Positions 10,906-43,416 of a stretch of DNA of 64,000 nucleotides are shown piece by piece. The notes below the pieces were generated by a model, which saw only the letters and a program-made list of their open reading frames with translations, made no database searches and had not been told where the DNA came from. The position numbers were made by a program, and so were the translations under genes. The stretch is taken from the NCBI GenBank assembly GCA_002722885.1, contig PBNE01000011.1:2336-66335 (forward strand), in the 5' to 3' direction. The stretch is from Rhodospirillaceae bacterium. GTDB taxonomy: Bacteria > Pseudomonadota > Alphaproteobacteria > SP197. Numbering within the stretch: the first letter of the stretch is position 1; every line of letters starts with the position of its first letter.

Positions 10906-11684
10906 ATGTACGACAGCCTGCCTGAAAACAACCGTAAGTCGACCGTGTCTGTCGACAACGGCGAGGAGCCCAGGTTCCTTCAGATCGCGGCGCGCATCAG
11001 GTCTCTCATCACCGCAGGCGATCTTGAGGCACACACGGCACTGCGCTCGGAGCGCGTGCTCGCTGAGGAGCAGGGCGTTAGCCGGATGACGGCACGGCAC
11101 GCGCTTGAAGCTCGCGAAACCGAGGGACTGATCTACAGCGCAGATCGCCGCGGCCGCTTTCTGTCGTCGAAACGCCTGACCTACGATGTCAGCAACATGA
11201 TCAGTTTCGCGGCAGACGCCCGGTCGTGCGAAAAGGAGCTCGAGATCGAGGTCATCCATGCGAGTGGGGCCAGGGCCGATGCAATGGTCGCGAGGCATCT
11301 CGGCATCTGGCCTGGTGCGGCCGTGTTCGACTACCTGCGCCTGTTCCGGACCAATGGGTACACCATTTTTATCGAATCCGAGTATGTCGATGCATAGCGG
11401 TTTCCGGATTTTTTGGACCATGACCTTCGCCAGTCCACCACCGGTATCCTCGACGAACACTACGGAGCATCGGCCCGTACGGCGACATAGTCATACGGAT
11501 GCGCGGTGTGGATGCCCATGAGGCGGAGCTTCTGGGCCTGACCGCCAGCCATGCCGGTATCGAACTCGAACAGGTCATCCGTGATGGCGACAGCACCCCG
11601 TTCTGTCTGGACCGTCAGATCTGGCGCGGTGAGCTGGCGGAGTTTTCGGTCCGAGCCATCGTGACTCCGGAAGGAAGCCTATGA
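10906..11684 (+). pseudogene. GntR/HutC-family transcriptional regulator with an in-frame TAG and a frameshift
   Basis: Winged-helix part (LRSERVLAEEQGVSRMTARHALEARETEGLIYS) followed by a UTRA-like part. TAG at 11395-11397 in frame, then a frame change near 11480-11490 (the continuation is the ORF at 11499-11684). Confidence 0.75.
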
Positions 11685-17931: not shown

Positions 17932-18537
17932 TTAATCCATCAAGCCGGCGAGCGTCACACGAAGGCTGCGGCGTGCCCGCACAAGCAGTTGTTCCAATGC
18001 CCCAACCGACACCTCAAGTACGTCGGCCGCGTCGGCGTTGCTCATTCCTTCGAAAAAGCAGAGCACCAACGCTTCTTTCTGCCGATCCGGCAGTTCCATC
18101 ACAGCCGTGCGAACCTGCTCGGCCGTCTGATTGCTTCCCAGCGTCACCTCGGGATCGGGCGCATCATCGGAGAGATCCTCCGGCACCTCACCCGCGGTCG
18201 GCTTCACCCGTCTGGTCCGGTCGATGCACAGGTTGACCACGACCCGGTAGAGCCAGGTGGTGAACTGCGCGCCGCCTGTCTTCCACTTCGGGGCATGGCG
18301 CCACACGCGCAACATGGCGTCATGGGCAACATCCTCCGCGTCCGTGCGATTGCCCAGAGTGCGGTATGCAATGGCGACACAACGGTCCAGATGCTTGGCA
18401 GCCAGGACCCCGAAGGCTTCCCGGTCCTCAGCGCCAATCATGACCATCAGACGGTCATCATCGAGCTCCGAGAGCGGCTGGGTAACGGTTTCACGCTCTA
18501 AAGGAATGACATTTCCTAGTATTGCGTCCAGCGGCAT
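17932..18537 (-). CDS. RNA polymerase ECF-type sigma factor
   Basis: 201 aa. Region 2 (DAEDVAHDAMLRVWRHA, FTTWLYRVVVNLCIDRTRR) and region 4 (LPDRQKEALVLCFFEGMSNADAADVLEVSVGALEQLLVRARRSL). Confidence 0.9.
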   Translation of the reverse strand: MPLDAILGNVIPLERETVTQPLSELDDDRLMVMIGAEDREAFGVLAAKHLDRCVAIAYRTLGNRTDAEDVAHDAMLRVWRHAPKWKTGGAQFTTWLYRVVVNLCIDRTRRVKPTAGEVPEDLSDDAPDPEVTLGSNQTAEQVRTAVMELPDRQKEALVLCFFEGMSNADAADVLEVSVGALEQLLVRARRSLRVTLAGLMD

Positions 18538-18663
18538 GGCTCGTTGGCCCCTTTTCCCCTATCCGAGCCTTCCACGCCTTCTGAACTGGTTTCCTACGCC
18601 CATGATTGAATTTTTTTGGAACGTTTCATAGCGTGCAAAATGACTAGCAAAAGTTGCCAACCT

Positions 18664-19023
18664 ATGACGCGAACTCGCCCCAGAGTGCTCTTGGTCGAAG
18701 AGACGCCGCCGCTGGCCCGTGTCAATCAGGAGTACCTGCGTTTTGGGGATATCGACCTTGAAACATTGGAAAACGGCGAAGACGCATTCGCCGCCATCGA
18801 GCGTGACGAACCCGATGCCGTGCTGCTTGATCTGCGCCTGCCGGACATGGCTGGGCTCGACATCCTGCGCTGGATACGCCAGCGGGACCTTTTAAGCTAG
18901 GTCGTCATCATCACGGCCCATTGCTCGGTCAGCACCGCTGTGGAGGCCATGCGCGACGGCGCCTATGACTTTCTGGTCAAACCGTTCACGAGAGCGCCAA
19001 TCCATATGGACAAGCCATCATAA
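18664..19023 (+). pseudogene. stub of an NtrC/LuxO-type response regulator (receiver domain only, in-frame TAG)
   Basis: RVLLVEE...AVLLDLRLPDMAGLDILRWIRQRDLLS*VVIITAHCSVSTAVEAMRDGAYDFLVKPF with TAG at 18898-18900. The frame ends at 19021-19023, and no AAA+ or DNA-binding domain follows. Confidence 0.7.
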
Positions 19024-19040
19024 GCCAAGCGATCGATCCG

Positions 19041-19346
19041 ATGGCGGAGGCCATACAGGCACTTCTCGATGTCGCAGCGAGTGGCCGGCCGGGCCGGGGT
19101 CTCGTGGCTGTGAAATACCTAAAGCGTGTCGACCGACATATCGCAGCCTTCCTAGCCATTCGGCGCATCATCGACAGCATTGGCAGCGGTCGCGTGCTGC
19201 TACAGACCGTGGCGGCCTCCATTGGGCGTTCGCTCGAAGACGAGGAGCGGTTCACAGAGTTTCAGAAGCAGCACCCGGGTATGTTCAAGCGAGTTCTCGA
19301 TGATCTGAAGCGGCGACGCAAAAGCACTCGGATCACTAGGGCCTGA
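19041..19346 (+). pseudogene. N-terminal-domain fragment of a phage T7-like single-subunit RNA polymerase
   Basis: VKYLKRVDRHIAAFLAIRRIIDSIGSGRVLLQTVAASIGRSLEDEERFTEFQKQHPGMFKRVLDDLKRR aligns by eye with T7 RNAP ...FLQEIKPEAVAYITIKTTLACLTSADNTTVQAVASAIGRAIEDEARFGRIRDLEAKHFKKNVEEQLNKR (reference from memory). Only about 100 of roughly 880 aa are present. Confidence 0.65.
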
Positions 19347-19404
19347 GATCTTAAAACTTTAAAGATCACAAACCTTTCCATTGCGTCCGTCCTTACTAAC
19401 ACAC

Positions 19405-19448
19405 AGACGAAAACTACAGCCTAGTGTTTGAACAACTAGGCTGTAGTT
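19405..19448 (-). terminator. rho-independent terminator downstream of the aldehyde dehydrogenase gene
   Basis: Perfect 14-bp stem (19412-19425 / 19435-19448, AACTACAGCCTAGT ... ACTAGGCTGTAGTT). On the minus strand it is followed by a short T tract (TTTTCGTCT). It lies 70 nt after the stop at 19519. Confidence 0.55.
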
Positions 19449-19518
19449 CTCCTGGTCCCTCTAATTCGCGCGCTGTTCTCGTCAATTATAACAGAGCGCT
19501 CAAAAGGGATTTTATCGG

Positions 19519-20943
19519 TTATGACGTGACCGCCTTGGTTTCGAGATATTCATGGAAACCTAGAGGCCCCGCTTCCCGACCATTTCCAGATTGCTTGTAG
19601 CCTCCGAACGGCACATCAAAATCACCGGCGTTGCCATTGACGTTAATAATGCCCGCTCTCAGTTGCCGGCTCACCCTGGCTACGCGCTCGCTGTCTGAAG
19701 ATTGTACATAAGCTGCAAGACCGTAGTCGGTATCGTTTGCAATTTCGATTGCTTCTGCTTCTGTCTCAAAAGGAATGATCGATAGAACCGGACCGAAAAC
19801 TTCCTGTCGGGCAATATTCATGTCGTTATTCACGTCGGCGAAAAGGGTTGGTCGAATGTAGTACCCCTGCTCGAATCCATCCGGGCGGCCGGGCCCACCT
19901 ACGGCCAATCGCGCGCCATCATCAATTCCAGCCTGAATGAGATTTTGTACATGTGCGAATTGACGCTTGTTAACCACGGGCCCGATGTGATCACCCTCTT
20001 TCATCGGATCGTCTACTTTAGTCGATTCCACTTCTGCCGTTACAAGCGCGACAACCTCATCATACACGCTACGCTCAACTAATAGTCGCGAAGCAGCATC
20101 ACAAGATTGACCGTTGTTGATAAAACACGCAGCGACGGAGGTTTTCGCGGCTTCCTCGAGATTCGCGTCAGCGAAGAGGAGATTCGGGGATTTACCGCCC
20201 AATTCAAGTGAAACCCGCTTGATTGTGTCTGCCGCAGCCTTAGTGACGGCCTTGCCGGCCCTCGTCGATCCTGTGAATGAAACCATATCGATTTTAGGAT
20301 GTGACGAAATAGCTTCTCCAACACCTGGACCATCGCCATTAACCATGTTGAAAACACCGGCTGGGCAGCCGGCTTCGTGGATCACTTCGGCCAAAATTAT
20401 GGAAGTCAGAGGAGAATACTCGCTAGGTTTCAAAACGATGGTACACCCTGCAGCAAGCGCCGGCGCCACTTTTATCATTATTTGATTAACCGGCCAGTTC
20501 CACGGTGTAATCATTCCGACAACGCCAACTGGTTCGTCAATCAATGTAGAGCCACCCCGCATAGAGGGCCTCTCAAATTGATGAGCCTTTACCGCTTCAA
20601 TGGCGGCTTCCATGTGGCCAACACCAACCGGCATATGAACTTCGCGGGAGAAGGACATGGTGGTGCCCATCTCATGGGGCATCATCTTTACTATCTCCTC
20701 AGCGCGGGCGTTATAGATTTCGAGCATACGCTGAAGCAGCGAAACCCGCTCTTCTATTGAGCTAAATTGCCATGTTTTAAATGCCTCCATAGCCGCATCG
20801 ACGGCGCGATCAACATCGGTCTTAGAGCCAAGTGCAATCGTCGCAATCGGCTGTTCGTTTCCCGGATGGATTACATCAAAATCGACACCATCAGCCGGAT
20901 CAGTCCACTCGCCATTTATGTAAAATTTCTTGTGGTTACTCAT
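19519..20943 (-). CDS. NAD(P)-dependent aldehyde dehydrogenase
   Basis: 474 aa, intact. ITPWNWP, VSLELGGKSP (catalytic Glu) and FINNGQSCDAASR (catalytic Cys). Visibly AT-richer codon usage than the neighbours. Confidence 0.93.
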   Translation of the reverse strand: MSNHKKFYINGEWTDPADGVDFDVIHPGNEQPIATIALGSKTDVDRAVDAAMEAFKTWQFSSIEERVSLLQRMLEIYNARAEEIVKMMPHEMGTTMSFSREVHMPVGVGHMEAAIEAVKAHQFERPSMRGGSTLIDEPVGVVGMITPWNWPVNQIMIKVAPALAAGCTIVLKPSEYSPLTSIILAEVIHEAGCPAGVFNMVNGDGPGVGEAISSHPKIDMVSFTGSTRAGKAVTKAAADTIKRVSLELGGKSPNLLFADANLEEAAKTSVAACFINNGQSCDAASRLLVERSVYDEVVALVTAEVESTKVDDPMKEGDHIGPVVNKRQFAHVQNLIQAGIDDGARLAVGGPGRPDGFEQGYYIRPTLFADVNNDMNIARQEVFGPVLSIIPFETEAEAIEIANDTDYGLAAYVQSSDSERVARVSRQLRAGIINVNGNAGDFDVPFGGYKQSGNGREAGPLGFHEYLETKAVTS

Positions 20944-21114
20944 GATAGCTTTCCCTCAAAACCGTTTCTCTTGATCGCCTGCGCAAACACCACCGAAGCC
21001 GCAAAGGGCTCGAGTTCGCGCTATCGGAATTTAAGTAACTTGGTCTGTTAGAAATTAATGATAGTTATTCTTAATTGCAATATCTATCTATTCTTAAACG
21101 GGAGAATACGCACT

Positions 21115-21766
21115 ATGGGTCAATGGAACGCCTTTATCAGCGCAAGTTCCCGTTTGACCGCAGGCGGCTCGACAGTTTGCAATCTTTGGCCCCGACCTGC
21201 CGCTGAGTGACATCAAGACGGCAATGCTTGATGATTTCGTGCCCGCGATGATTTTGAAGGGGAACCGCCCGGCTACAATCAATCGAAAACTGCGCGCTCT
21301 TTCGACGGCCATGACCGTTGCGATTGATCGCGATGGGCTCTGCCGGAAGCCGATGTTTCCTTGGCAGTAGGGGCCTTCCGGCCGCTCAAAGCTCTTCAGC
21401 CCCGAGGAAAAATCACTAATCATCACCCGCGCGAGAGAGACTGGTCAGAACATGTTAGCCGACATGATCGTGCTCTACATCGACACCGGCTATAGGTTCA
21501 ATGAGCTGCGGAGCTGCCTGAACGATGAAGCTCACATCAACCTGAACCTCGATCCGCCGACGATGACCATTTATAAAACCAAGAATTGGGAGAAAGTCGG
21601 GCCACGCACGGGGCCCCTGACACAACGCTGCGTCGAGATCCTGCGCGATCGCGTGGCTACCACGCCGAAAGGCGCGAAAATGTTTACCCTCTCGAGAAGA
21701 CAGATGCACCATCGGTGGAATGTGATCCGAAAGGATTTGGAACGCGCCGAGGATCCCGAGAGGTAG
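21115..21766 (+). pseudogene. tyrosine recombinase/phage integrase: frameshifted, with an in-frame TAG, and lacking the catalytic C-terminal half
   Basis: ATG at 21115 with GGGAGAA upstream, then a frame change near 21175. FGPDLPLSDIKTAMLDDFV...NRPATINRKLRALSTAM (core-binding domain), TAG at 21368-21370, then LFSPEEKSLII...LYIDTGYRFNELRSC (first catalytic Arg box). It stops at 21764-21766, before the HxxR/Y motifs. Confidence 0.75.
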
Positions 21767-21812
21767 CCGACGTCCAATGATTCAACTTTCGTTCTGAGGC
21801 GGGCTGCTCGCT

Positions 21813-22541
21813 TTGGTGCTGGGCGCGGTATTCGGCAGCTTCGCCTCCATGCTGCCCCACCGCATGCCGCACGGGCTCGATCTGCTCGGCCGGCGTTCTG
21901 CCTGTCCGTCCTGTGAGACACCGCTGGGTGCACGCCACCTGTTTCCGGTTCTGTGCTGCTGCCTGAGCCGTGGCAGGTGCCGCCTTTGCCAATCGCCCGT
22001 GTCGTGGCGCTATCCCTTGACCGAAGTGGCCATGGTTGTGGCCTTCTTGGGCGTGTGGTGGGTTTCCGGCGGGATTGGCATCGGGTTTTCTGTTCTCGCC
22101 GCGCTGGCCTTCGTTTTGCTGGTGATGTCGGTGATCGTTCTTGAGCACGGTTATTTGCCGGACTCGCTTCAGGCTGCGGCTGCCGTGTTGGCGGTTGTCT
22201 GGCACGCTCTGCCGGCACCCGAACTGGTTGCCCAGGCGCTCGACTCGGTCCTGGGTCTCGCCGTCCTTGGCGGTGCGGGGCTTGCAGTTAAATGGGGGTT
22301 TCAAAAGCTGCGCGGTCGGGATAGCTTCGGCCCTGGCGATGTAAAACTGCTTGCTGTCGCGGGGCTCTGGCTCGGCCTGGGCCCAGCTCCGCTGAACCTG
22401 GTGGCAAGCGGGTTGGGCGGTACGGCTCTGGCCATCGTCTGGCAGCGCGCCGGTCTGGGGCGCGAGTTCCCGCTCGGCCCCTCCCTGGCGCTGGTGCTCT
22501 ATCTTCGGGTACTGTTTCCCGCCGCTACCGGCTATATCTGA
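21813..22541 (+). CDS. prepilin peptidase (A24 family)
   Basis: GAVFGSFASMLPHR, CPSCETPL...CRLCQSP zinc-like Cys pairs, and GPGDVKLLAVAGLWLG (second catalytic Asp). The track start is TTG 21813. An in-frame ATG at 21777 is separated from it by TGA at 21795-21797. Confidence 0.8.
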   Translation: MVLGAVFGSFASMLPHRMPHGLDLLGRRSACPSCETPLGARHLFPVLCCCLSRGRCRLCQSPVSWRYPLTEVAMVVAFLGVWWVSGGIGIGFSVLAALAFVLLVMSVIVLEHGYLPDSLQAAAAVLAVVWHALPAPELVAQALDSVLGLAVLGGAGLAVKWGFQKLRGRDSFGPGDVKLLAVAGLWLGLGPAPLNLVASGLGGTALAIVWQRAGLGREFPLGPSLALVLYLRVLFPAATGYI

Positions 22542-24071: not shown

Positions 24072-25199
24072 TCAGAATCCCGCTTTGACCTCTTCGAACA
24101 TCACGTTGGCGCGTTCGCGGACGGCCGGGTCCCATTCGTCGAAGAACTGGCCCATATCCATCAGCCGGGTCGGATTTTCGATCCCCAGCTCTTCAAGAAG
24201 CTCCTGATTGGCGGCCTCGAAGGCGCGGCTGTTGGCAGCGCCGTAGCCGTACTCCTCGATCATGAAGACTCCGGCCTCCGCCGAGATCCCGGCGTCGATG
24301 TAGGCATAAGCGTCCTCGTCGCTGCCGGGTCCGTCCAGAATCAGGCAGGTGCAGTCGACCCAGGTCAGGATGCCCTCTTTCGGGACCATGTAGCCGACGT
24401 CGATGCCCTGCCGCTTGAGCGAGGCATAAGCATGGTTCCAGGCATAGGCCGCCACCACCTCACCGGTGTAGAGCGCCTGTTCGATGTCGGACTGGCTCGT
24501 CCAGTACATGCGCAGCAGTTCGCGCTGCTCGATCAGCTTGGCGCGAACCGCTTCAAGCTGGTCGTTATTCATGTGATAGGGGTCTTCGATACCCAGGATC
24601 ATAGCGGCCTGAAGCACTGCAGCGTCCATCGAATCCCTTTGGGCCAGGCGCCCGGCATAGGCCTCGTCCCAGAGGATCTTCCAGCTTTCGCTGCCGACGT
24701 ATTCCTGGGCCAGGTCGCGCCGATAGAGCACGGAGCTGTTGCCCCAGGAAAACGGCACGCCGTAGATATTGCTCCCGTCATGCAGGGCCCCGATCGAGGT
24801 CAGCCTTGGGAAGATGTCGCCGTAGTTTTCGAGCCGTGACACGTCGATGGGCTTGAGCAGTCCGGCGTCACGCCAGCGGGCCACCATGTAGGTCGTGGGC
24901 TGCGTCAGGGTCGGCCGGTAGCCGGCACGCACCTTCTCGATCGCCTCGTCGTTGTCGACAAACAGCAGATAGCTCGGCGCGCCACCGGTTTCTTCATCAT
25001 AGCCGGGGCGCAGCTGCGGCACGTCGTAGCTTGCCCACGTGAGCACCTGGATTGGATCCTTCGCCTGCACTGCGACCTGTGAGACCGGCACCGAGAGCGT
25101 GACCACACCGACCGATGCCAGGACCCTGCTTATGTCGCGACGGCCCAGCGTTCCGGCCGTCAGGGCCGCTTTGAATTCGCTAAGATCCATGAGCGCCAT
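24072..25199 (-). CDS. ABC transporter substrate-binding protein (PotD/PotF-like polyamine/opine type)
   Basis: 375 aa. N-terminal twin-Arg-like signal (TLGRRDISRVLASVGVV). Family-1 solute-binding-protein size and pattern. Confidence 0.8.
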   Translation of the reverse strand: MALMDLSEFKAALTAGTLGRRDISRVLASVGVVTLSVPVSQVAVQAKDPIQVLTWASYDVPQLRPGYDEETGGAPSYLLFVDNDEAIEKVRAGYRPTLTQPTTYMVARWRDAGLLKPIDVSRLENYGDIFPRLTSIGALHDGSNIYGVPFSWGNSSVLYRRDLAQEYVGSESWKILWDEAYAGRLAQRDSMDAAVLQAAMILGIEDPYHMNNDQLEAVRAKLIEQRELLRMYWTSQSDIEQALYTGEVVAAYAWNHAYASLKRQGIDVGYMVPKEGILTWVDCTCLILDGPGSDEDAYAYIDAGISAEAGVFMIEEYGYGAANSRAFEAANQELLEELGIENPTRLMDMGQFFDEWDPAVRERANVMFEEVKAGF

Positions 25200-25276: not shown

Positions 25277-27163
25277 TCACACAGCCTTGTGTGTTTTTAC
25301 GCGGATTCCGGCAGCGACCGCCCGGCCGTCGGTCGCATGAACCGGCCCCACTTCAAAGGTGCTGACCAGATCGGCAAGCTCGATTGCCAAAACGGCAAAG
25401 CCAGACAGGGCACGGGCGAAGGCGGTATGTTCGGCATTGGGCCAGCCATCGCTGTTGCACAGCAGACGGCTGACCTGCAGGCGATCAATCAGCCGACCGG
25501 CAGCGTCTTCATCCAGTCCGGGCAGGGCGTGAACAGCCTCGTCGAGCAGTTTGCCGTAGTTGCCGGCTGTCCTGAGTGCAATCAGCGGGCCGAACTGGGG
25601 GTCGTCAATCAGACTGAAGGTGAGTTTGACTACCTGGCTGCCGGGATCGAAGGCTGGCTCGAACCCGAAGCCGGCCAGAAGTTGTTTTGAGGCCTCAGCA
25701 TCAAAGGCTTCTATGAGTGAGAGCAGATCGCGCAGGCGTGCCACCACGACAGGGTCGGCAGCATCCGACCCCGAAGTCGGTGCCGTCTGCCGGTCGCGCC
25801 AGGCCATGGCATGGCGAATGGCCTTCAGACCTTCGCCGGTGCCGCAGAGCGCCATGACGCCATCGTCGATCAGCGCCTTGCCGGCCGTCATCATGCCCGA
25901 CATCGGCGTGTTGATAAGAGCAGCGAGCGGCTTGTCGGTCCGGTCCCGTGTCGCCACCAGCGCCTTGGCGTAGCCCTTTTCGGTGGTGGGATTCCACTGG
26001 AAGTCACCGCAAAAGGTGACCAGGCCCACGCCGGGGTCGCCTGCCATTGCGCCGAAGTAACCTTCGAAGTCATCTTCGTAGTTCGCGGCCGTGCCCCAGG
26101 CATCGAGCGGGTTCACAGGTTCCAGCGCATGGTGAAGGTGAGGCCGGAGGCGTGAGGCGGTCTCCGACGTGATCTCGGCCAGGGGCACACCCAGGGCTTC
26201 GGCCTGGTCGACGAACATCTCGCGCTCGCCGCCCGAATCCAACACCACGCCCATGCCGCCGCGCGCCAGCGGGCGGTCGTGCGAGAGCAGGGTCAGAAGG
26301 TTGGCCATTTCGTCCATTGTCTCGACTCGCATCACACCGTAGCGATCAAACACCGCCTGGTAGGCATGGTCGTTCCCGGCGTCCGCATCTGAGTGGACTT
26401 TGGCGAAGTGTTTGGCTTTCTCGCTCGCACCCACTTTCATGGCGACGACGGGCACATCGGCCTCGCGCGCTCGCGCCAGGGCAGCCATGAACCCTTCGGG
26501 ATCACGCGCCTCTTCCATAAACAGCGCGATCACCTTGGTCGACGGCATGGTCAGCGCATAGTCAATGTAGTCGGCCACCGTGCCGTTGATCTCCTGACCG
26601 CAGGAGACAATCAGGTTGCAGCGATAACGAAAATCGTTGAGGCCAATCTCGCTGAACACCGTGCCCGAATGGGTGATGAAGGCGACATTGCCGCCGGGCA
26701 CCATCTTGTCGCTGGCATCATAGATGGTGATGGGGATGCGGTCGGCCATGTTGAGATAGCCCATGCCGTTGCCGCCGCAGACCGGCAGGCTGGCCTCGCG
26801 AGCCTTGGCCTTCAGGCGGCCCAGCAGGCCGCGATCGCTCTCGCCGTCGAGATAGCAGGTGTCGAAGATTGTGACTGAACGCGCGCCAATCGCTAGTGCG
26901 TCGTCGAGCTGTTGTTCCAGAAAGGTGCTGTTCACGCCCAGCACCGCCAAGTCGACCGGCCCGGGTAGGTCCCGCAGCGTCGCGTGGCAGGCCAGCTCCT
27001 GGATCGTGTCGTACTTCGGATTGACCGGGTGAAGTTCACCGTCGAAGCCGCAATTGATCAGGCCGGCCAGCATTCCGTGCCCGGCGCTGCCTTCACGTTG
27101 TGAGGCGCCGACCACGGCTATGGAGCGGGGACGCAGCATGGGCGTCAGGTGGTGATCGGTCAT
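25277..27163 (-). CDS. ADP-forming acyl-CoA synthetase (acetate--CoA ligase family, CoA-binding plus ligase-CoA domains)
   Basis: Start chosen at the ATG at 27163 (MTDHHLTPMLRPRSIAVVGASQREGSAGH, CoA-binding Rossmann motif). The C-terminal ATP-grasp part looks short (see findings). Confidence 0.8.
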   Translation of the reverse strand: MTDHHLTPMLRPRSIAVVGASQREGSAGHGMLAGLINCGFDGELHPVNPKYDTIQELACHATLRDLPGPVDLAVLGVNSTFLEQQLDDALAIGARSVTIFDTCYLDGESDRGLLGRLKAKAREASLPVCGGNGMGYLNMADRIPITIYDASDKMVPGGNVAFITHSGTVFSEIGLNDFRYRCNLIVSCGQEINGTVADYIDYALTMPSTKVIALFMEEARDPEGFMAALARAREADVPVVAMKVGASEKAKHFAKVHSDADAGNDHAYQAVFDRYGVMRVETMDEMANLLTLLSHDRPLARGGMGVVLDSGGEREMFVDQAEALGVPLAEITSETASRLRPHLHHALEPVNPLDAWGTAANYEDDFEGYFGAMAGDPGVGLVTFCGDFQWNPTTEKGYAKALVATRDRTDKPLAALINTPMSGMMTAGKALIDDGVMALCGTGEGLKAIRHAMAWRDRQTAPTSGSDAADPVVVARLRDLLSLIEAFDAEASKQLLAGFGFEPAFDPGSQVVKLTFSLIDDPQFGPLIALRTAGNYGKLLDEAVHALPGLDEDAAGRLIDRLQVSRLLCNSDGWPNAEHTAFARALSGFAVLAIELADLVSTFEVGPVHATDGRAVAAGIRVKTHKAV

Positions 27164-27353
27164 GGCGCGTTTCCGATGGGGCAGATGTTGGCTGTTTGAT
27201 AGCAGGTTGGTTTGCCCGCGCAATCTCGTGGGTGTGAATTGTCACGTACCCGCAGTTCTTTTCCCTACGAACAGCGTATCGCTCTTGCGCTGGTGTGTTT
27301 AGCCGCCGCACAGTGCTGTCAGCCGAGCCACATGCCAGCAGGTTCTTCCCGTC

Positions 27354-29672
27354 ATGTCCTATCCCTTGCCCCGGAGCGCGCGCGACTGGCAGTCGCGCAT
27401 GCTGAAATTTGTAGACGAACACCTCATTCCCTGGGAGGTCGAAGCCGAGATGAACGACGGCGTCATCCCGCAGGATGCTTTCGATGCGATCTTTGCCGCG
27501 ACCAGGGAGATGGGCCTCTACTTCCCGTCGATCCCCAAAGACGGCGGCGGCGCGGAGCTTTCCAAGCTCGAGATCGCTGTGATTCAGGAGGCTGTCGGTC
27601 GCACGACCAACGGCATGTGGGGCTGCTATTCGGATCTCTCGCCCTTCCTCTATCACACGGCCAACGACCACCAGAAAGAACGGTATGTCGAGCCGATGCT
27701 GCGTGACGGCACGAGGGTCTGCTATGCCATCACCGAGCTCGGTGCAGGCAGCGATGTCGATGCCATCGAAGCAACCGCGGTGAAGGACGGCAATGGCTAC
27801 GTCCTCAACGGCGTGAAGCTCCATGTGACAGGCGCCAATCTCTCAGATTGGATCGTCTTCCAGGCCAAGCTGGAGGACGGCGGCCACGCACTGTTTTATG
27901 TCGACATGCAGGCCGAAGGCGTCAGCACGATCCGCACGCCGCGCTACACCCACAACTTCCGCGGCCACCATCCCCTCATGAAGTTCGAGGATGTCCGTGT
28001 CACCGCCGACGACATGATCGATGCCGACGGCGACGGCATCACCTGGACCTACGACTGGTTCCGCCAGGAGCGCATGAAGATCGCCGCGCGCTGTTGCGGG
28101 GCTGCCAGCCGTCTGATTGACGAGGCCACAGCCTTTACCCGTAAGCGGGTCCAGTTCGGCCAGCCGATCTGGGAGAACCAGGCCGTCCAGTTCCCGATCG
28201 CCGACAGTTTGACAGAACTCTGGGCCGGCCGGTTGATGACCTATGACACCGCAGCCGCCATGGACCGTCACGACGACGTGAAGGTCCTGCATGCCAAATG
28301 CGCGATGGCCAAGCTCTTCTGCTCGGAGTTTGCGCATCGCACGGCGGACAGGACCGTGCAGATTTTCGGCGGGCGCGGCTATATGCGCGAAAATGTCGCC
28401 GAGCGGTTCTATCGCGAGCTTCGCGTCGACCGGATCTGGGAAGGCACCAGCGAAATCCAGCGTGTGATTATCGCTCACAGCCTGCGCAAACGCGGCCAGG
28501 AGATGCTGACGGGCGTCGGTGAGCCGGAGTCAGCCCTTTCCTGGAAGAAGACGCTGCGCGCCTTCATTGATGCCGAGTGCATCCCGCTGGAACAGCTGGC
28601 TGACGAGAACGACGGTCAGCTTCCCGTCGAGATCAAGCACAAGCACCGCAATGCGGCAAAGGAGATGGGCCTGTGGTTACCCAATGTGCCGAAAGAATTC
28701 GGCGGTGGCGGCTTCAGTGCGGCGGAGATCACGGCCGTCGAGGAAGAGGTCGGCCGCGCCACCAACGGCGTCGGCTTCTTCTTCCATGACGTCTCGCCAT
28801 TTTTGGTGAGGACGGCGACGCCCTGGCAGATGGAGACTTATGTCCAGCCGATGCTGAATGGCGAGCGCAACGAGTGCTACGCCATCACCGAAGAGGGCGC
28901 GGGCAGTGATGTCAGTGCCATCGAGGCGACGGCGGTCCGTGACGGCAACGGTTATGTGCTCAACGGCGTTAAGTGGCATGTCACCGGCTTCAACAAGGCC
29001 GATGTCATCGTCTTCCAGGCCCAGATGGAGGATGGCCAGCACGGCCTGTTTTACGTCGACCGCGAGGCCAACGGCGTAGAGGTCGTGCGCACACCGGCTT
29101 ACAGCCATACCTATCCTTCGCACCATCCGATCGTGAGATTCGATCAGGTGAAGGTGACTGCCGACGCGCTGATTGATCCCGACGGCAGCGGCATTGCGCT
29201 CACCCATGAATGGTTCCGGCAGGAGCGGCTCGGGATCGCGGCCCGCTGCTGCGGTGCCGCCAGCCGCCTGATCGACGAGGCCTTGGCCTTCGCCGAGGAA
29301 CGGGTGCAGTTCGGCAAGCCAATCATCGAAAACCAGGCCATCGCCTTCATGCTGGCCGACAGTCTGACCGAACTCTGGGCCGGCCGGCTGATGATCTACC
29401 GCCTCGCACAGGCGATCGATGACGGCGATGACGTCAAGGTCCAGCACGCGCTCTGTTCGATGGCCAAGCTCTACTGTTCGGAGATGGCCAACCGGGTCGC
29501 GGACCGTGCCGTCCAGATCTTCGGAGGACGCGGCTACATGCGTGAATACGCGGCCGAACGGTTTTATCGCGAGCTCCGTGTTGACCGCATCTGGGAAGGC
29601 ACCAGCGAAATCCAGCGATTGATCATCGCCCAGAGCCTGGTGAAGCGTGGCCAGGACGCCCTGATCGGATGA
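27354..29672 (+). CDS. tandem-fused double acyl-CoA dehydrogenase
   Basis: 772 aa consisting of two complete ACAD units (about nt 27354-28520 and 28521-29672). Each ends in FGGRGYMRE...ERFYRELRVDRIWEGTSEIQR. Confidence 0.9.
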   Translation: MSYPLPRSARDWQSRMLKFVDEHLIPWEVEAEMNDGVIPQDAFDAIFAATREMGLYFPSIPKDGGGAELSKLEIAVIQEAVGRTTNGMWGCYSDLSPFLYHTANDHQKERYVEPMLRDGTRVCYAITELGAGSDVDAIEATAVKDGNGYVLNGVKLHVTGANLSDWIVFQAKLEDGGHALFYVDMQAEGVSTIRTPRYTHNFRGHHPLMKFEDVRVTADDMIDADGDGITWTYDWFRQERMKIAARCCGAASRLIDEATAFTRKRVQFGQPIWENQAVQFPIADSLTELWAGRLMTYDTAAAMDRHDDVKVLHAKCAMAKLFCSEFAHRTADRTVQIFGGRGYMRENVAERFYRELRVDRIWEGTSEIQRVIIAHSLRKRGQEMLTGVGEPESALSWKKTLRAFIDAECIPLEQLADENDGQLPVEIKHKHRNAAKEMGLWLPNVPKEFGGGGFSAAEITAVEEEVGRATNGVGFFFHDVSPFLVRTATPWQMETYVQPMLNGERNECYAITEEGAGSDVSAIEATAVRDGNGYVLNGVKWHVTGFNKADVIVFQAQMEDGQHGLFYVDREANGVEVVRTPAYSHTYPSHHPIVRFDQVKVTADALIDPDGSGIALTHEWFRQERLGIAARCCGAASRLIDEALAFAEERVQFGKPIIENQAIAFMLADSLTELWAGRLMIYRLAQAIDDGDDVKVQHALCSMAKLYCSEMANRVADRAVQIFGGRGYMREYAAERFYRELRVDRIWEGTSEIQRLIIAQSLVKRGQDALIG

Positions 29673-29676
29673 TGCC

Positions 29677-30456
29677 GTGAGTGACAGCCGCCGTGTCATG
29701 GCCCATCGCGGAGCCTCCGGCCATGCGCCGGAAAACACGCTTGCCGCCATGGCATCCGCGTGTGAGCTCGGCTGTACCTGGGTTGAGTTCGATGTCCGGT
29801 TGAGCCGCGATGATGTTCCGGTGCTGATTCACGACGCCACGCTGAAACGCACCGCGGGCGAGGATCTGCGGATCGAGGACGTCCATTCGGAGGATCTTGG
29901 CGGCATCGACGCCGGCTCTTGGTTTGATCCGTTCTGGCGTGACGAGCGCATTCCGACTCTGGCCCAGGCGCTCGATGCCTGCCTCGTCCTGGGACTCACA
30001 CCCAACATCGAGATCAAGGCCGACACCGGCCAGGGCATGGCGACGGCAGCGGCCGTGGCGCGCACCGTCAACGAGCGTTGGCCTGCCGACAGGCCGCGTC
30101 CCCTGGTCTCCAGCTTCAGCTTCCGCACGCTCTACCGCTTCCGCTTCGCCGGCGGCAGGGCCGCACTGGCTCTTCTGATGTGGCAGGAACCGCGCCGGTT
30201 CTGGACACTCCATAAGCATCTGCTGCGCGCTGAAGCCATCCATGTCGATCCCTCTCTCATGAATAAGCGCCTTGTGGCGCGGGCTCGTGCCCGCCGTTGC
30301 CGCGTGGCCGTTTATACGGTCAACGATCCGCAAGAGGGCCAGGCGCTTTACGAGGCCGGCGCCGACACCCTGATCACAAACTGGCCCGAACGCTTCCTGG
30401 CGACCGAGGGCTTCTCGGGGCAGCCGGTTGCGGAGAGTGCCGTCGTCGGGGGATGA
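29677..30456 (+). CDS. glycerophosphodiester phosphodiesterase family protein
   Basis: 259 aa. AHRGASGHAPENTLAA and VEFDVRLSRDDVPVLIHD motifs. Confidence 0.85.
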   Translation: MSDSRRVMAHRGASGHAPENTLAAMASACELGCTWVEFDVRLSRDDVPVLIHDATLKRTAGEDLRIEDVHSEDLGGIDAGSWFDPFWRDERIPTLAQALDACLVLGLTPNIEIKADTGQGMATAAAVARTVNERWPADRPRPLVSSFSFRTLYRFRFAGGRAALALLMWQEPRRFWTLHKHLLRAEAIHVDPSLMNKRLVARARARRCRVAVYTVNDPQEGQALYEAGADTLITNWPERFLATEGFSGQPVAESAVVGG

Positions 30457-38231: not shown

Positions 38232-38738
38232 CTAGGCAGTGCGGCTGTCTCCAGCCGCCTGGCCCGAACAGACCAGGAGTGCCAACCAGAAACCGTCTGC
38301 CTCGAACTTCACATTGTCGCCTGACCCGACCAGATGCCGAGTCAAGACAAACCCCAGGCCGTCCTGACGGTCGATGGTGAGACTCGGCGCCGCCTGCTTC
38401 AGCGCCGGGTCATGGATGTTCAGCACGCGCGACCCGGTCCGCACCTCCAGCCGGTGCGGTGTCTGAGGGCCGCAGGTCCAGAGCGAGCCGGCAGTCAGGT
38501 CAGACACTGCACTGCCGGCTTCATCGGTCCGCCGAACTGCCCCTTCCAACAGTACATTGGTTTCCCGGTGATTGCTGAAACACAGTCTCTAATCGAGATC
38601 GGCGTGGGCGTCGGCCTGGGTCACGATCAGGCTAAGCCCCTCGGCTTTCGTGAGATAACGCCATGAGGTCACAGCGCCATCGGTGCTCCTCCGGACCCGC
38701 CCCTCGGCTTCCAGCCACGCGGGCCTCAGATCGATCAC
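38232..38738 (-). pseudogene. decayed paralog of the EctC-like cupin gene, with an in-frame TAG and a truncated second module
   Basis: The GTG at 38738 overlaps the upstream stop (GTGA). MIDLRPAWLEAEGRVRRSTDGAVTSWRYLTKAEGLSLIV...DLD*RLCFSNHRETNVLLEG...WTCGPQTPHRLEV parallels the neighbour's modules. TAG at 38589-38591. Confidence 0.65.
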
Positions 38739-39574
38739 GCGCTGCCGTCAGGTCCTGCCGGAATCGGCCCGGTGGGCGGGTAGCCACCCTGGTCGTCGTG
38801 CCGTTCTGTGCCGTCGAGCGGCGGGTTGAAGACCGAGATCACATGGGAATCGACCAGCACCTTCAGGCGATGCTTGTCCCGGGGCCCCAAGCAATAGACA
38901 TCGCCGGTCACCAGATCATGCGTCTCGCCGCTCTCCCGGTCGGAAAGCTCGATCTCACCATCGAGCACGATGTTGGCCTCCCAGTGGTTGCGATACCACA
39001 GATCGACCTCGCGCCCGGCTTTGAACCGGACATCCGAGATCGCGACGCCCAGATTGTCGGCGCTGGTCAGCAGCTTGGCGAAGCGCGATCCGCCGTCGGC
39101 GCGTTCGACCGCATGGCCGGCCTCTTCGGCCATCGCCCAGGTCTTCACGAACATGCGCTCCTTGCCCTCGGGCGGCGTGCCGTTGGCGGGATAGGTGCCT
39201 TCCGCATCATGGGTCTCCGAGCCGACCAGCGGCGGATTGAAGACGCTGATGATGCGGAAACCCTCGTCGGCCGTGTTCTGGAGCTGGTGCCGGTCGCCGG
39301 GGCCGACGCAATACATCACGCCGGGCTCCAGGTCCCAGACCGTGCTGTTAGTCAGATCGGTCAGCGTACCGCTGCCCTGGCGGACATAGTTCGCCTCCCA
39401 GTGGTTCTTGTACCAGAGGGTCGCATTGCCACCGGGAACACCGCGCGCTTCCGAAAGGCTGAACCCCAGACCGTCGGACGCATTGAGCATACGCAGGGCG
39501 CCCGACTTGCCCTGGTTGATGACCAGCATGCGGTCGGGCTGTGCTTCCATCCATTCAAGGGTGCGGATCAGCAT
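38735..39574 (-). CDS. fused double ectoine-synthase-like (EctC-type) cupin protein
   Basis: 279 aa, two modules. MLIRTLEWME...LWYKNHWEANYVRQGSG...VFNPPLVGSETHDAEGTYP, then FVKTWAMAEE...LWYRNHWEANIVLDGE...VFNPPLDGTERHDDQGGYP. Both align by eye with EctC ([15 protein letters not shown] ... [20 protein letters not shown], from memory). Confidence 0.8.
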   Translation of the reverse strand: MLIRTLEWMEAQPDRMLVINQGKSGALRMLNASDGLGFSLSEARGVPGGNATLWYKNHWEANYVRQGSGTLTDLTNSTVWDLEPGVMYCVGPGDRHQLQNTADEGFRIISVFNPPLVGSETHDAEGTYPANGTPPEGKERMFVKTWAMAEEAGHAVERADGGSRFAKLLTSADNLGVAISDVRFKAGREVDLWYRNHWEANIVLDGEIELSDRESGETHDLVTGDVYCLGPRDKHRLKVLVDSHVISVFNPPLDGTERHDDQGGYPPTGPIPAGPDGSA

Positions 39575-39735
39575 GGCGGGGCTCCGTTTCGGTTGGGGGG
39601 CAAAGGGACTGGGACAGAACCATAAAGGTTGGTCGCACGTTCGTCACAGGTCTTTGGAGGTCGGGAGGTTTGTCAAAGCCTGCACGTTGAACGGTCTGAG
39701 CGAGATGGCGCGGTCCGTCGTGATGATGGTGCTGT

Positions 39736-40929
39736 TTAACCCTGGGCCACCTGCTTGCCGCGGGGGATCAGCTTCTCCGCGTCATAGAACGGCAGCGCCA
39801 CCGTTTCGCCCGGCACGCCGTCGGCCCCGCAGGTAACTTGGCGGTCGATCCAGTCGCCTTCCTGATCGAATAGGACATAACCGATCGCGTGACCCAGGGT
39901 CGGCGACTCAACCGATGCTGTGATCGAACCGGCCACGGCACCGTCGATCATCACAGCCATGCCCGCTTCCAGTGTGCCCTGTGACGTCAGCCCGACCAGA
40001 CGCGGCCGTCGATCCGCCTTTTCCAGAGCCTCGCGGCCGATGAAGTCGCCCTTCTCGAAATCGACGAATTGGCCCAGCCCGGCGGCGAAGGGTGTGGTTC
40101 CCGGATTCATGTCTGAGCCGTTGTTGAGGATGCCGCCTTCGATACGCCGGATGTTCATCGACGCCATCGACGCAAAACGCAGCTCATGGGCCGCGCCTTT
40201 GTCTATCATGTGATCCCACAGGGCCGCATGGTCACAGTCTTCGGGAACATAAATCTCGAAGCCCAACTCATTGGTCCAGCCCGTGCGTGTGACCAGCAGC
40301 CGTTGACCCGCCATCGTGACCTCTGCGGCCGCGAAGTAGGTGAAGGGTGAGGGCATCCCGTCATCTGCGAGGTCGCCAAGAACATCGAGCGAGCGCGGCC
40401 CCTGAATCTGCAACACCCAGTCCTCGGTATCGACAATCTCGACGTCGAAGCCCTTCTGGTGGGCCCGCAGCCAGGTGAAGATTTCGCCGTCCGCGAGCAC
40501 GTAGCGGAAGCGGTCTTCTGCCAGACGCATCAGAACACCATCCATCAGGATACCGCCGTCGTCGTAGCACATCAGGCCATAGCCGCAGCGCCCGACCTTC
40601 ATGGGCGTGATCGCACGCACCATCAGATAATCTAGGAACCGTGCGGCATCGGGCCCGACAAACTCGATGGCGTGTTCAGGAACATCGTAAAGTGTGGCGG
40701 CGCGGCGCAGGTGGGCGTATTCGAAGGCCACGTCGTCATCCAGATAGACCGGCGACATATGGCCGCTGTAGACACAGAAGATGGCATCGGGACCGATCTT
40801 GTCTTCGTAGAACGGAATGAAGGGTGAGGCGCGATGCCCCGCCTTCCGCCAGGGGAAAACCGGCAGGGTCCGGGGGGCACCGCCCTGGAATGACCCGACG
40901 GTGGCGGTGTTGGATGAAGATGTTGTCAT
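39736..40929 (-). CDS. aminomethyltransferase (GcvT/DmdA) family protein
   Basis: 397 aa. RTGWTNELGFEIYV and RRIEGGILNNGSDM motifs, with the C-terminal barrel typical of folate-dependent GcvT-fold enzymes. Confidence 0.85.
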   Translation of the reverse strand: MTTSSSNTATVGSFQGGAPRTLPVFPWRKAGHRASPFIPFYEDKIGPDAIFCVYSGHMSPVYLDDDVAFEYAHLRRAATLYDVPEHAIEFVGPDAARFLDYLMVRAITPMKVGRCGYGLMCYDDGGILMDGVLMRLAEDRFRYVLADGEIFTWLRAHQKGFDVEIVDTEDWVLQIQGPRSLDVLGDLADDGMPSPFTYFAAAEVTMAGQRLLVTRTGWTNELGFEIYVPEDCDHAALWDHMIDKGAAHELRFASMASMNIRRIEGGILNNGSDMNPGTTPFAAGLGQFVDFEKGDFIGREALEKADRRPRLVGLTSQGTLEAGMAVMIDGAVAGSITASVESPTLGHAIGYVLFDQEGDWIDRQVTCGADGVPGETVALPFYDAEKLIPRGKQVAQG

Positions 40930-40954
40930 GCAGAAATTCTCCGATTTGTGTCGT

Positions 40955-42142
40955 TCAGCACGCCGCGCTCAGGGCTTCCGGCAGGGGTTCAGGGCAGGCG
41001 GTCGCACCCGTCAGAAGCCGGGCGAGGTACTGGTTGAACTCGTGGTTGGGCCGTTCCAGGTAGCTGAGGTGCCCGGGCCGGGCCAGGCCGGCGTTCATGC
41101 CGCGGAACACGGCCTGGGTACCAATCCGGTCTTCCTCGTTCACATCGTCCAGAATCTGCTTGGCCTTGGCGACGTGTTCAGCACCCTGTGGATCGTTGAT
41201 GAAGTCGGGCGCCATGCCGCCGCCATAGAGCATCTTCACCTGGCCGACGCCATGGGGCTGCAGCACCAGATACCAGAAGTAACCCGGGGTCAGGGTGATC
41301 ATGTGGCCGGGATAGATCGTGATCAGCGCCGTCGTGCGCCGCCACTCACCCTCCAGATAGCGGCAGTCGGGATGCGCATTGGCCAGCGCGAATTCGGATT
41401 CCTTGGTGATCCAGTGGTAGTTGAAGACGGCATTGCCCGGCGGCATGTCCATCTCCTCCACCTTCGACTGCTTGCCGATGGTCGGGCCGTGGAGCTGGAA
41501 CAGGTGGTAACTTTCCATGAAGTTCTCGGCCAGAACCTTCCAGTTCGTGTCCCAGATGTGTTCTTCACGGAAGGTCTCGACATAATTCTCGAACTGGTAG
41601 CGGCCGGTCACGATGTCCTTGATCGACTGCAGCCGCTTGGCGACCGGCTCGATATCCGGATTGAGCGTGACATAAATCCAGCCGTCCCACAGCTCGCAGC
41701 GGATCGTGGGAAGGCAGTAATCCTTCTTCTCGAACTCCGGCGTGCCGTCCATGTAGGGCGCCTTGCGCAGGTTGCCGTCGAGGTCATAACTCCAGGCGTG
41801 ATAGGGGCAGGTCACGAACTTCTTGTTGCCCGTGCCTTCCAGAAGAATGCTCATCCGGTGCAGGCAGACGTTCGAGTAGGCCCGGATCCCACCCGACTTG
41901 TCGCGGATCACGAAGATCGGCTGATCGGCGATCTGCAGGGTCAGGTAGTCGCCGGTCTTCTTCAAGGATTCGGCACGGCCGGCGCAGATCCATTCCTTGC
42001 TGAACACGTGTTCGAGTTCGAGTTCGAGAAAATCTGGCGAGGTGTAGATACCCGCCGGCGCCGCCCTCGCGCCTTCGAACGGCCGTTCGGCGTTGCTGTG
42101 AAGTTCGCTGAGGATCTGGTCGATAGGCGTTTTTCTGGGCAT
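40955..42142 (-). CDS. aromatic-ring-hydroxylating-type Rieske oxygenase, alpha subunit
   Basis: 395 aa. Rieske motif CLHRMSIL...CPYHAWSY, and a C-terminal catalytic domain with ENFMESYHLFQLH-type iron ligands. Confidence 0.88.
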   Translation of the reverse strand: MPRKTPIDQILSELHSNAERPFEGARAAPAGIYTSPDFLELELEHVFSKEWICAGRAESLKKTGDYLTLQIADQPIFVIRDKSGGIRAYSNVCLHRMSILLEGTGNKKFVTCPYHAWSYDLDGNLRKAPYMDGTPEFEKKDYCLPTIRCELWDGWIYVTLNPDIEPVAKRLQSIKDIVTGRYQFENYVETFREEHIWDTNWKVLAENFMESYHLFQLHGPTIGKQSKVEEMDMPPGNAVFNYHWITKESEFALANAHPDCRYLEGEWRRTTALITIYPGHMITLTPGYFWYLVLQPHGVGQVKMLYGGGMAPDFINDPQGAEHVAKAKQILDDVNEEDRIGTQAVFRGMNAGLARPGHLSYLERPNHEFNQYLARLLTGATACPEPLPEALSAAC

Positions 42143-42276
42143 GGCTCACTGTCACTCTTGAGGACGACTGGCATGGTTGTCGGGCGCGGATTGCGTTCCT
42201 TGACAGTACCGAACGGGTCGCCGACAAGCGACATGCTTCTACAGAAACACCGCTTAGACAAAAGCTAAGGTCTTTC

Positions 42277-43416
42277 ATGGTTCACAGGGTCGATCACGTC
42301 CCCCTCATGTCGTCCGGTCCGGGCACCCAGCGCTTTCTTACCGTCCATCGGTTTGGCACGATCGGCGCACGGCCCAAGCTCTACTTTCATGCCGCGCTCC
42401 ACGCCGACGAACTGCCGGGAACGCTGATCCTCAACCGCATGCTCGGCTGGCTGGCTGAGGCCGACTGCGAGGGTGCGATCACCGGCGAGATCGTCGTTCT
42501 CCCGATCGCCAATCCCATCGGTCTCTCCAACCGGATCATGGGCTATCACCTCGGCCGCTACGACCTCGACGGTGACGGCAACTTCAACCGCTGGTATCCG
42601 AACCTCGCCCGCAAGATCGCGGCCAGGGTCGGCAACAGTCTCACCGACGACAGGGACGAGAACACAGCTATCATTCGTCAGGCCAGCCTTGAGGCTGTTG
42701 AGGCCTGGCCCGGAGAAGGTGAGGCCAACACACTGCGCAAAACGCTGCTCGGCCTTTCGGTGGATTGCGACTTCATCTTCGACCTGCACTGCCATGGCGA
42801 GGCGATCCAGTACATCTACTTCCCCGAGAACCACTGGGAGCGCTACGGCGATCTTGCCGCCGAACTGGCCTGCCGAACCGTCCTGCTGTTCCCGACAGAT
42901 GAGGGCACCAACTTCGATGTCGCGAGCACAGTCATTTGGCATCATCTGCGCAAGTCCTTTCCGGACCGCCCGATCGCCGAGCCGCCCTTTACCACCACGG
43001 TGGAGCTGCGCGGCCAGAATGATGTGGGAGATGATACTGCCTTGCCGGACGCCGAAGGTCTCTGGCGTTTCATGCAGCGCCGTGGCGTCATTGCAGGCGA
43101 TCCCGGCGAACCACCGCCCTTGCTCTGTGAGCCGACGCCCCAATCGGGCTCCGACGATCTCGTCGCTCCTTGTGCCGGCGTGATCTCCTACCGTATCGCG
43201 CCCGGCGACCGGATTGCAGCAGGTGATGTGGTGGCCGATATCGTTGACCCGTCGGAACCGGACTTCGAGAAGGCGCGCACGCCAGTCATCAGTCGGGCGA
43301 CTGGTGTCTTCTACGGGCGGAATCTGAGCCGTCTGGTGCGGCCGGGCCAGTCCTTTGCCGTGATCTCCGGCAGCGAACCGCTTCCCGCCAACGATCTTCC
43401 CGTGATCGATTACTGA
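42277..43416 (+). CDS. succinylglutamate desuccinylase/aspartoacylase (AstE/AspA, DoeB-like) family deacylase
   Basis: 379 aa. LYFHAALHADELPG zinc motif and DLHCHGEA. Confidence 0.85.
   Translation: MVHRVDHVPLMSSGPGTQRFLTVHRFGTIGARPKLYFHAALHADELPGTLILNRMLGWLAEADCEGAITGEIVVLPIANPIGLSNRIMGYHLGRYDLDGDGNFNRWYPNLARKIAARVGNSLTDDRDENTAIIRQASLEAVEAWPGEGEANTLRKTLLGLSVDCDFIFDLHCHGEAIQYIYFPENHWERYGDLAAELACRTVLLFPTDEGTNFDVASTVIWHHLRKSFPDRPIAEPPFTTTVELRGQNDVGDDTALPDAEGLWRFMQRRGVIAGDPGEPPPLLCEPTPQSGSDDLVAPCAGVISYRIAPGDRIAAGDVVADIVDPSEPDFEKARTPVISRATGVFYGRNLSRLVRPGQSFAVISGSEPLPANDLPVIDY

Follow-up and report, generated by a model that had tools for sequence, protein, structure and literature searches.

A fused double acyl-CoA dehydrogenase with catalytic and FAD-contact motifs in both halves from marine Alphaproteobacteria

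One open reading frame with two acyl-CoA dehydrogenase units

The DNA analysed here, referred to as the window, is a stretch of 64,000 nucleotides from contig PBNE01000011.1 of a Rhodospirillaceae bacterium (assembly GCA_002722885.1), and our subject is a gene in it that encodes two acyl-CoA dehydrogenase (ACAD) units in a single polypeptide. The gene is one uninterrupted open reading frame (ORF) of 772 codons plus a stop, with the protein P0001 as its product, and its position among its neighbours is given in Table 1. The Pfam domains PF02771 (N-terminal alpha), PF02770 (middle beta) and PF00441 (C-terminal alpha) each match twice, scoring 97, 115 and 306 bits where the gathering cut-offs lie at 22.9, 33.3 and 22.4, respectively, and both units belong fully to the acyl-CoA dehydrogenase superfamily.

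Table 1 Features of the double ACAD gene and its immediate surroundings in the window.
Feature	Position	Strand	Basis or remark
Fused double ACAD gene (P0001)	27354..29672	+	Open frame; Pfam ACAD N/M/C domains twice
ACAD unit 1, residues 1-387, more derived copy	27354..28514	+	Hidden Markov model (HMM) envelope 1-387
H157, His at the MCAD Trp166 position, unit 1	27822..27824	+	His in both halves of all fused orthologs
E239, additional helix-G Glu of unit 1, preceding the conserved Arg (IVD/LCAD-type position)	28068..28070	+	E239-R240 invariant; same column as helix-G-type ACADs
29-nt repeat, copy 1, encoding IWEGTSEIQR	28434..28462	+	Exact match to 29589-29617
E363, MCAD-type (J-K loop) catalytic Glu, unit 1	28440..28442	+	Invariant in 16/16 fused proteins; codon checked
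Unit junction, QEMLTG/VGEPES	28503..28532	+	Read from sequence: in frame, no linker, no stop
ACAD unit 2, residues 388-772, nearer to the single-unit ancestor	28515..29669	+	HMM envelope 388-772
H542, unit 2 equivalent of H157	28977-28979	+	His in both halves of all fused orthologs
E624, additional helix-G Glu of unit 2	29223..29225	+	E624-R625 invariant; codon checked
29-nt repeat, copy 2	29589..29617	+	Exact match to 28434-28462
E748, MCAD-type (J-K loop) catalytic Glu, unit 2	29595..29597	+	Invariant; codon checked
PotD/PotF-like periplasmic substrate-binding protein	24072..25199	-	Pfam SBP_bac_8 and SBP_bac_6; weak NCBIfam PotF/PotD
ADP-forming acyl-CoA synthetase (CoA_binding_2, Succ_CoA_lig, ATP-grasp_5), divergent	25277..27223	-	Pfam, NCBIfam
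Divergent intergenic region, 130 bp, synthetase to ACAD	27224..27353	.	Coordinates
Glycerophosphodiester phosphodiesterase (GDPD) gene, 4 nt past the ACAD stop	29677..30456	+	Pfam, NCBIfam

A preliminary description of this DNA, made from the sequence alone, had proposed two complete ACAD units fused in one 772-residue chain, with residues 1-389 and 390-772 as the halves and roughly two-thirds of the positions alike. When the two halves were aligned by BLASTP they gave 240 identities over 382 positions (63%) with 0 gaps (E = 7e-179), and the four long identical blocks quoted in that description were all seen in the alignment. What had to be corrected is the exact boundary: the single-unit relatives are 387 residues long, running from MSYPLPE to ALIG, and therefore we set the two collinear units at 1-387 and 388-772 (nucleotides 28514/28515) without a linker between them. 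At the DNA level the codon-aligned halves are 65.6% identical, and 50% at third codon positions, which shows that the duplication is old. A 29-nucleotide stretch is shared exactly, as had also been reported, and gene conversion was considered as its source; this was rejected on account of the 50% third-position identity and because the stretch encodes the invariant IWEGTSEIQR.

Five sources (NCBI, Logan, ENA, Tara and MetaClust) together hold 7 contigs that encode exactly this 772-residue protein. A whole-genome search covering the order of the source organism (33 genomes, one family) found the gene at full length and without stops in 23 further genomes, which belong to g1 and g2, two sister genera of marine Alphaproteobacteria, and many of these assemblies consist of only 1-2 contigs. 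The same uninterrupted frame is present in 15 named loci from metagenome-assembled genomes (MAGs). The junction is also bridged by Logan contigs from other samples and from another study, and these differ by substitutions only: record 8 of X2 spans 27200-29228, record 18 of X3 spans 28210-28823, and record 27 of X8 spans 27988-28618 with 22 substitutions and no indel. Around the boundary, at 28514-28554, there are six changes, four of which fall on third codon positions when the frame is counted by hand, and none of which creates a stop. It is clear that the fused gene is real and not an assembly artefact, and the sign of mis-assembly that the preliminary description had asked for, a stop or frameshift between the units, was present neither in the 23 orthologous genomes nor in the independent junction-spanning contigs. 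The source genome holds approximately 24 ACAD units, and the window gene is the sole fused one; three adjacent ACAD pairs in the same genome are unfused (G000, C10:21519-23848, C13:25030-27363 and C13:389288-391623).

Active-site residues and comparison with known enzymes

To describe the two active sites, all units were aligned to a subfamily HMM and read at 11 marker positions, the equivalents of T136, S142, W166, T168, R281, Q292, Q349, G352, G353, E376 and T378 of the medium-chain ACAD (MCAD), a numbering mapped from known motifs and the HMM alignment and not from a structure with bound flavin adenine dinucleotide (FAD). At these positions both halves of all fused orthologs have T, S, H, T, R, Q, Q, G, G, E and T, and the markers are invariant across an alignment of 16 fused proteins from the two genera, including the FAD-contact equivalents (T136, S142, T168, R281, Q349 and G352/G353). 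Judged by the Glu in (Y/W)EGT, both units are of the MCAD type, since WEGTSEIQ occurs twice, with E363 and E748 as the putative catalytic Glu residues, just as the preliminary description had stated; in alignments with CarC (6FAH) and 2DVL, E748 falls on the Glu of their YEGT motif. Loss of FAD or catalytic residues from one half, which that description had named as the finding that would count against it, was not seen in either half of any ortholog. In pairwise comparison with eight orthologs the ratio of nonsynonymous to synonymous substitution rates (dN/dS) lay at 0.08-0.19 in unit 1 and at 0.11-0.23 in unit 2, rough values because dS is near saturation (0.7-1.5), and these indicate purifying selection on both halves, which with their complete markers are apparently functional.

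Each half carries two further conspicuous residues. One is the His at the Trp166 position (H157 and H542), where MCAD has a Trp that shields the flavin. The other is a second Glu, on helix G and directly before a conserved Arg (in unit 1 the context is FRQ-E239-R), and sequences with a helix-G Glu and a loop Gly have that Glu in the column of E239 and E624. Two other ACADs of the genome with a helix-G Glu (L084 and L085) served as position controls only, since their naming as isovaleryl-CoA dehydrogenase (IVD) by NCBIfam failed. The catalytic base of IVD and of the long-chain ACAD (LCAD) is located on helix G, and that of all other known ACADs in the J-K loop (PMC11153573). Like IVD and LCAD, the window ACAD has a Glu immediately preceding the conserved Arg of helix G; unlike them, it also has the J-K loop Glu, which they lack (PMC11153573). 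The Glu/Arg/Glu/His combination is common to 178 single-unit relatives and occurs in no other ACAD unit of the source genome. Our search found no characterised member of this double-Glu/His subfamily, and no NCBIfam equivalog cut-off was reached: the best, AcrC, scored 394 bits summed over the two units compared to a cut-off of 640, and CaiA, cyclohexanecarboxyl-CoA dehydrogenase, the glutaryl-CoA dehydrogenase Acd, RedW/PigA and desulfinase were below their cut-offs too. The signature flags an uncharacterised ACAD subfamily.

The two halves have not remained equal. At 18 positions they are fixed differently, and at the 15 of these that can be polarised by the single-unit proteins the ancestral residue is found in unit 2 at 11 and in unit 1 at 3. 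One fixed change in unit 1 alters the ancestral motif NGLG(W/F)C to NGLWGC in the helix-E segment, which in MCAD lines the acyl pocket. It appears from the fixed changes in unit 1, including this pocket motif, that the fusion probably locks a 1:1 pairing of slightly different sites, and the two active sites may be differently tuned.

An AlphaFold2 model of the whole chain, based on the ortholog alignment, had a mean predicted local distance difference test (pLDDT) score of 86 and a predicted template modelling (pTM) score of 0.90; pLDDT was 92-93 across the junction (residues 381-400) and below 50 only in two loops around the catalytic Glu. The model fits a compact, ordered two-unit body. A Foldseek search of the PDB found no solved chain spanning both units, the best query TM-score being 0.56, for methylsuccinyl-CoA dehydrogenases and proteins resembling the very-long-chain ACAD, and a look-up in the ESM Atlas returned generic ACAD clusters only. 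The closest solved structures are the CoA-ester dehydrogenases and reductases CarC, the short-chain ACAD (SCAD) and MCAD (E = 1e-46 to 1e-55, target TM-score 0.81-0.85). Each unit is a full ACAD of the homotetrameric short/medium-chain and CarC types (6FAH, 1JQI, 3MDD and 2DVL); unlike the window units, these are single subunits of approximately 380 residues without the helix-G Glu, the residue being Gly in CarC and Bcd.

The closest known protein to the window ACAD is CasC of Rhodococcus jostii RHA1, a fused bile-acid side-chain ACAD which, as far as the account in PMC8399759 extends, has its catalytic Glu in the C-terminal domain only and uses the N-terminal domain for FAD binding. By the same account each heterodimer of the α2β2 steroid ACADs contains a single Glu and a single FAD, which gives two active sites per tetramer (PMC8399759), so the contrast that the preliminary description drew, of steroid enzymes in which one half has lost FAD or catalytic residues, is correct according to that source. 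The window ACAD shares with CasC the layout of two ACAD units in a polypeptide of roughly 700-770 residues, presumably an intramolecular equivalent of the ACAD dimer. It differs in keeping the Glu and all FAD markers in both of its 63% identical halves and in having arisen from an independent, recent duplication within a different ACAD subfamily. A context of steroid catabolism is absent too, the neighbours in the window being the ADP-forming synthetase, the PotD-like substrate-binding protein, GDPD, a GGDEF protein and a MetE-like protein. ChsE3/FadE34 of M. tuberculosis is probably similar to CasC. The two units per chain are thus shared with the CasC/ChsE3 type, while neither the restriction to a single Glu and a single FAD site per pair of units nor the steroid context is, and the window ACAD is therefore not a member of the CasC group.

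With ChsE4-ChsE5, ChsE1-ChsE2, IpdE1-IpdE2 and Scd1AB the window ACAD has in common that two diverged ACAD paralogs are encoded side by side as a fixed 1:1 pair. In those α2β2 enzymes the two are separate adjacent genes and the β subunit lacks the Glu; here the pair is covalently fused in one ORF, neither half is degenerate, and four sites per pseudo-tetramer would be expected. All characterised fused or heteromeric ACADs consist of one working site and a helper half, and the window ACAD stands apart in that both halves are complete. The fused layout as such is already known from steroid-degrading bacteria and is not a new kind of system; likewise the enzyme class, the fold and the general chemistry are ordinary, and current understanding is not overturned.

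Other fusions exist among more distant proteins. Two-unit proteins of approximately 770 residues make up 12 of the best 150 representatives after clustering at 50%, and their halves are 32-64% identical to each other and about 30-37% identical to the window ACAD. Because the halves are closer to each other than to the window ACAD, these are independent events. Both J-K loop Glu residues are kept in the metagenomic fusions P0095/P0102/P0108 and P0097/P0109, none of which shares the helix-G Glu and His signature of the window ACAD, whereas one half is degenerate in P0058 (first half), P0076 (first half) and P0292 (second half). Since at least two more distant metagenomic lineages keep both Glu residues, fused ACADs arise repeatedly.

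Origin of the fusion and its gene neighbourhood

In the genera g3, g4 and g5 of the same family the whole-genome search gave only single-unit matches. The 387-residue ACAD of g3 (L079 and L083) is 70% identical to unit 1 and 72% identical to unit 2, and it is located directly upstream of the same GDPD gene, with a MetE-like gene, a PotD-like substrate-binding protein, an ADP-forming synthetase and a TraB-family gene nearby, as in the window. The presence of a single ACAD at the syntenic position in this sister genus makes an in situ tandem duplication followed by fusion probable, and together with the completeness of both halves it makes the locus a clear natural test of why enzymes that are homo-oligomers turn into covalent pseudo-dimers. 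Maximum-likelihood phylogeny separates the unit 1 sequences (support 100/100) from those of unit 2 (100/99), each set being a clade of its own, and the two are nested in a 100/100 clade with the single-unit proteins of g3 and g5. This pattern places the duplication before the divergence of the fused orthologs. The stem leading to unit 1 is 0.37 long, compared to 0.15 for unit 2. The proteins P0014-P0016 represent a second, independent duplication and fusion in the same subfamily.

The GDPD gene follows immediately downstream, at a distance of 4-50 nucleotides, in 15/15 fused loci (L001-L015), and it also follows the single-unit ACAD of g3. The ADP-forming synthetase is encoded divergently upstream in 9/15 fused loci and is found nearby in the g3 loci. 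Natural fusions of synthetase and ACAD are also known, namely P0103 (1094 residues) and P0084 (954 residues), whose N-terminal parts are 41% and 39% identical to the synthetase and whose C-terminal ACAD units are 44% identical to unit 2. These proteins provide Rosetta-stone support for a coupling of the two activities, and together with the conserved synteny they bear out the link between the ACAD and the divergent synthetase that had been suggested from the window alone. The synthetase itself matches ATP-grasp_5 only at profile positions 87-220 of 221, and approximately 190 of its residues (314-505) are without a Pfam match. The genome encodes one pair of electron-transfer flavoprotein (ETF) alpha and beta subunits, and the Trp166-equivalent of the ACAD is His, as mentioned above.

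Clues to the substrate come from the single-unit relatives. The PotD/PotF-like substrate-binding protein recurs near them, and those at 43-57% identity are located in amine-type clusters. In a Pseudomonadales MAG (L060:3-14421) a BetI-type TetR regulator is followed by a single-unit ACAD and a PotABCD-type importer, and the divergent arm encodes two amine-oxidase-like flavoproteins together with a GcvT-like protein and an ADP-forming synthetase; an aldehyde dehydrogenase gene is close by. The relative in an Acidimicrobiia MAG (L029) is surrounded by genes for CoA-transferase subunits, an HDAC-like amidohydrolase, a Rieske oxygenase, a class-III aminotransferase and an ABC importer. These contexts faintly suggest that the substrate might be an amine-derived acid activated to its CoA ester. 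In several phyla the genes of the subfamily are accompanied by those for ADP-forming acyl-CoA synthetases and for importers of the polyamine type, and the subfamily may for this reason mark an undescribed CoA-dependent catabolic route.

Proposed scheme and alternative readings

Taking these lines of evidence jointly, we consider it likely that the gene encodes a genuine single-chain double ACAD that originated by local duplication and fusion, has both halves intact with two types of site, and works in a pathway fed by the synthetase. Synteny suggests an ancestral 387-residue ACAD gene upstream of the GDPD gene and near an ADP-forming acyl-CoA synthetase gene. Tandem duplication and linker-less fusion would have taken place at the latest in the common ancestor of the two marine alphaproteobacterial genera. 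The two units of a chain would fold together as a canonical, FAD-sharing ACAD dimer, and two such chains would come together as a pseudo-tetramer that has four FAD sites and as many active sites, two of either type, as opposed to two sites per tetramer in the steroid enzymes. The substrate would be an acyl-CoA made by the neighbouring synthetase, and the electrons would presumably pass from the ACAD to the ETF of the genome.

Several observations pull in the other direction. In the best tree unit 1 groups with the single-unit proteins and unit 2 falls outside, and forcing the two units together costs 14.9 log-likelihood units with a p-value of 0.059 in the approximately unbiased (AU) test, just short of rejection, so the duplication may predate the genera and have been followed by losses. 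A phylogeny had been proposed in the preliminary description as a means of dating the duplication, and its outcome is divided: the duplication is older than the split of the fused orthologs, but its placement in the ancestor of g1 and g2 does not stand firmly at this p-value. The synthetase is not adjacent in several of the fused loci (L006, L007 and L012), and the idea of an amine-derived substrate is drawn from the surroundings of the relatives at 43-57% identity. Both the intramolecular packing and the dimer-of-chains state are features that we infer. Finally, as far as sequence can tell, motifs may be kept without turnover at both sites, and the near-saturated dS blunts the selection estimates.

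A more elaborate version of the proposed scheme holds that the fusion creates an obligate covalent heterodimer, in which two differently tuned double-Glu/His sites act in distinct or successive steps on a charged, amine-derived acyl-CoA supplied by the ADP-forming synthetase. We regard this version as a speculative possibility and rather unlikely; if true, it would be the first ACAD to have acquired two different working centres per chain through duplication and fusion.

Of slightly lower standing is the view that the ACAD fold has been put to chemistry other than the simple alpha,beta-dehydrogenation of acyl-CoA. The substrate might be bound to a carrier protein, the reaction might resemble that of an oxidase or a desulfinase, or dehydrogenation might be combined with isomerisation, each site using its two Glu residues and the His in place of Trp. 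The signature could be taken this way, being unique in the genome and kept in the 178 single-unit relatives, while the literature has the base either in the loop or on the helix (PMC11153573); so could the failure to reach any equivalog cut-off, with partial similarities to AcrC, CaiA, RedW/PigA and desulfinase. The CoA-ester context speaks strongly against it, with an acyl-CoA synthetase next door and natural synthetase-ACAD fusions, and so do the intact canonical Glu and FAD contacts and nearest solved structures that are ordinary CoA-ester dehydrogenases or reductases (CarC, SCAD and MCAD), which makes other chemistry improbable.

About as improbable, or a little more so, is that one half is catalytically silent despite its motifs, whose decay would not have become visible so far. 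Its part would be confined to structure or to holding FAD, which is the arrangement of CasC and the α2β2 steroid ACADs, and no other precedent has been characterised for ACADs that are fused or heteromeric (PMC8399759). The faster divergence of unit 1, with its changes in the pocket region, and the degenerate halves of some distant fusions (P0058, P0076 and P0292) would agree with such a role. Against it, the 11 markers are invariant in both halves of the 16 proteins from two genera and in an independent fusion, dN/dS is well below 1 in both halves, and the duplication is old enough, at 50% third-position identity, to have left ample time for a dispensable site to decay.

It is very unlikely that unit 2 is made, exclusively or in addition, as a separate 389-residue protein from the internal Met384, a non-conserved residue within the junction stretch. 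An NCBI protein of 389 residues (P0122) corresponds to residues 384-772 and has an equivalent from Rhodospirillaceae MAGs (P0123), and an AGGAG sequence is located directly 5' of the Met384 ATG. This AGGAG abuts the ATG without a spacer, Met384 is present in only 2/16 orthologs, no stop precedes it, the 383 codons upstream make up a complete conserved ACAD unit under purifying selection, and other sources call the full 772 residues. The second unit alone (28503-29672, P0122) is what some NCBI records annotate, for the source genome and for Rhodospirillaceae MAGs (MBT5434836.1 and others); such records leave the first 1.15 kb of the gene without a product and hide the fused architecture.

An artefact in which two adjacent ACAD genes were wrongly joined through a lost stop or frameshift can be dismissed for practical purposes: in an assembly of 23 contigs with 8.7% estimated contamination no positive evidence for it was found, and it is opposed by the same open frame in the 23 other genomes, 1-2-contig assemblies included, and the 15 MAG loci, as well as by the indel-free independent contigs with boundary changes mostly at third codon positions.

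Elsewhere in the window, the region 38735-43416 holds a gene cluster for a 279-residue protein in which two cupin stretches resemble ectoine synthase, a GcvT-like aminomethyltransferase, the alpha subunit of a Rieske oxygenase and a deacylase of the AstE/AspA family. By its look this set would serve the catabolism of ectoine or of a methylated amine. A 496-residue protein encoded at 9970-11460 on the reverse strand has a PhyH (phytanoyl-CoA dioxygenase family) domain in its C-terminal half only, its N-terminal 220 residues being without assignment. The G+C content drops to 0.53-0.56 at 18001-22000, compared to approximately 0.62 elsewhere, and the end of this dip adjoins a prepilin-peptidase (A24) gene located at 21813-22541.

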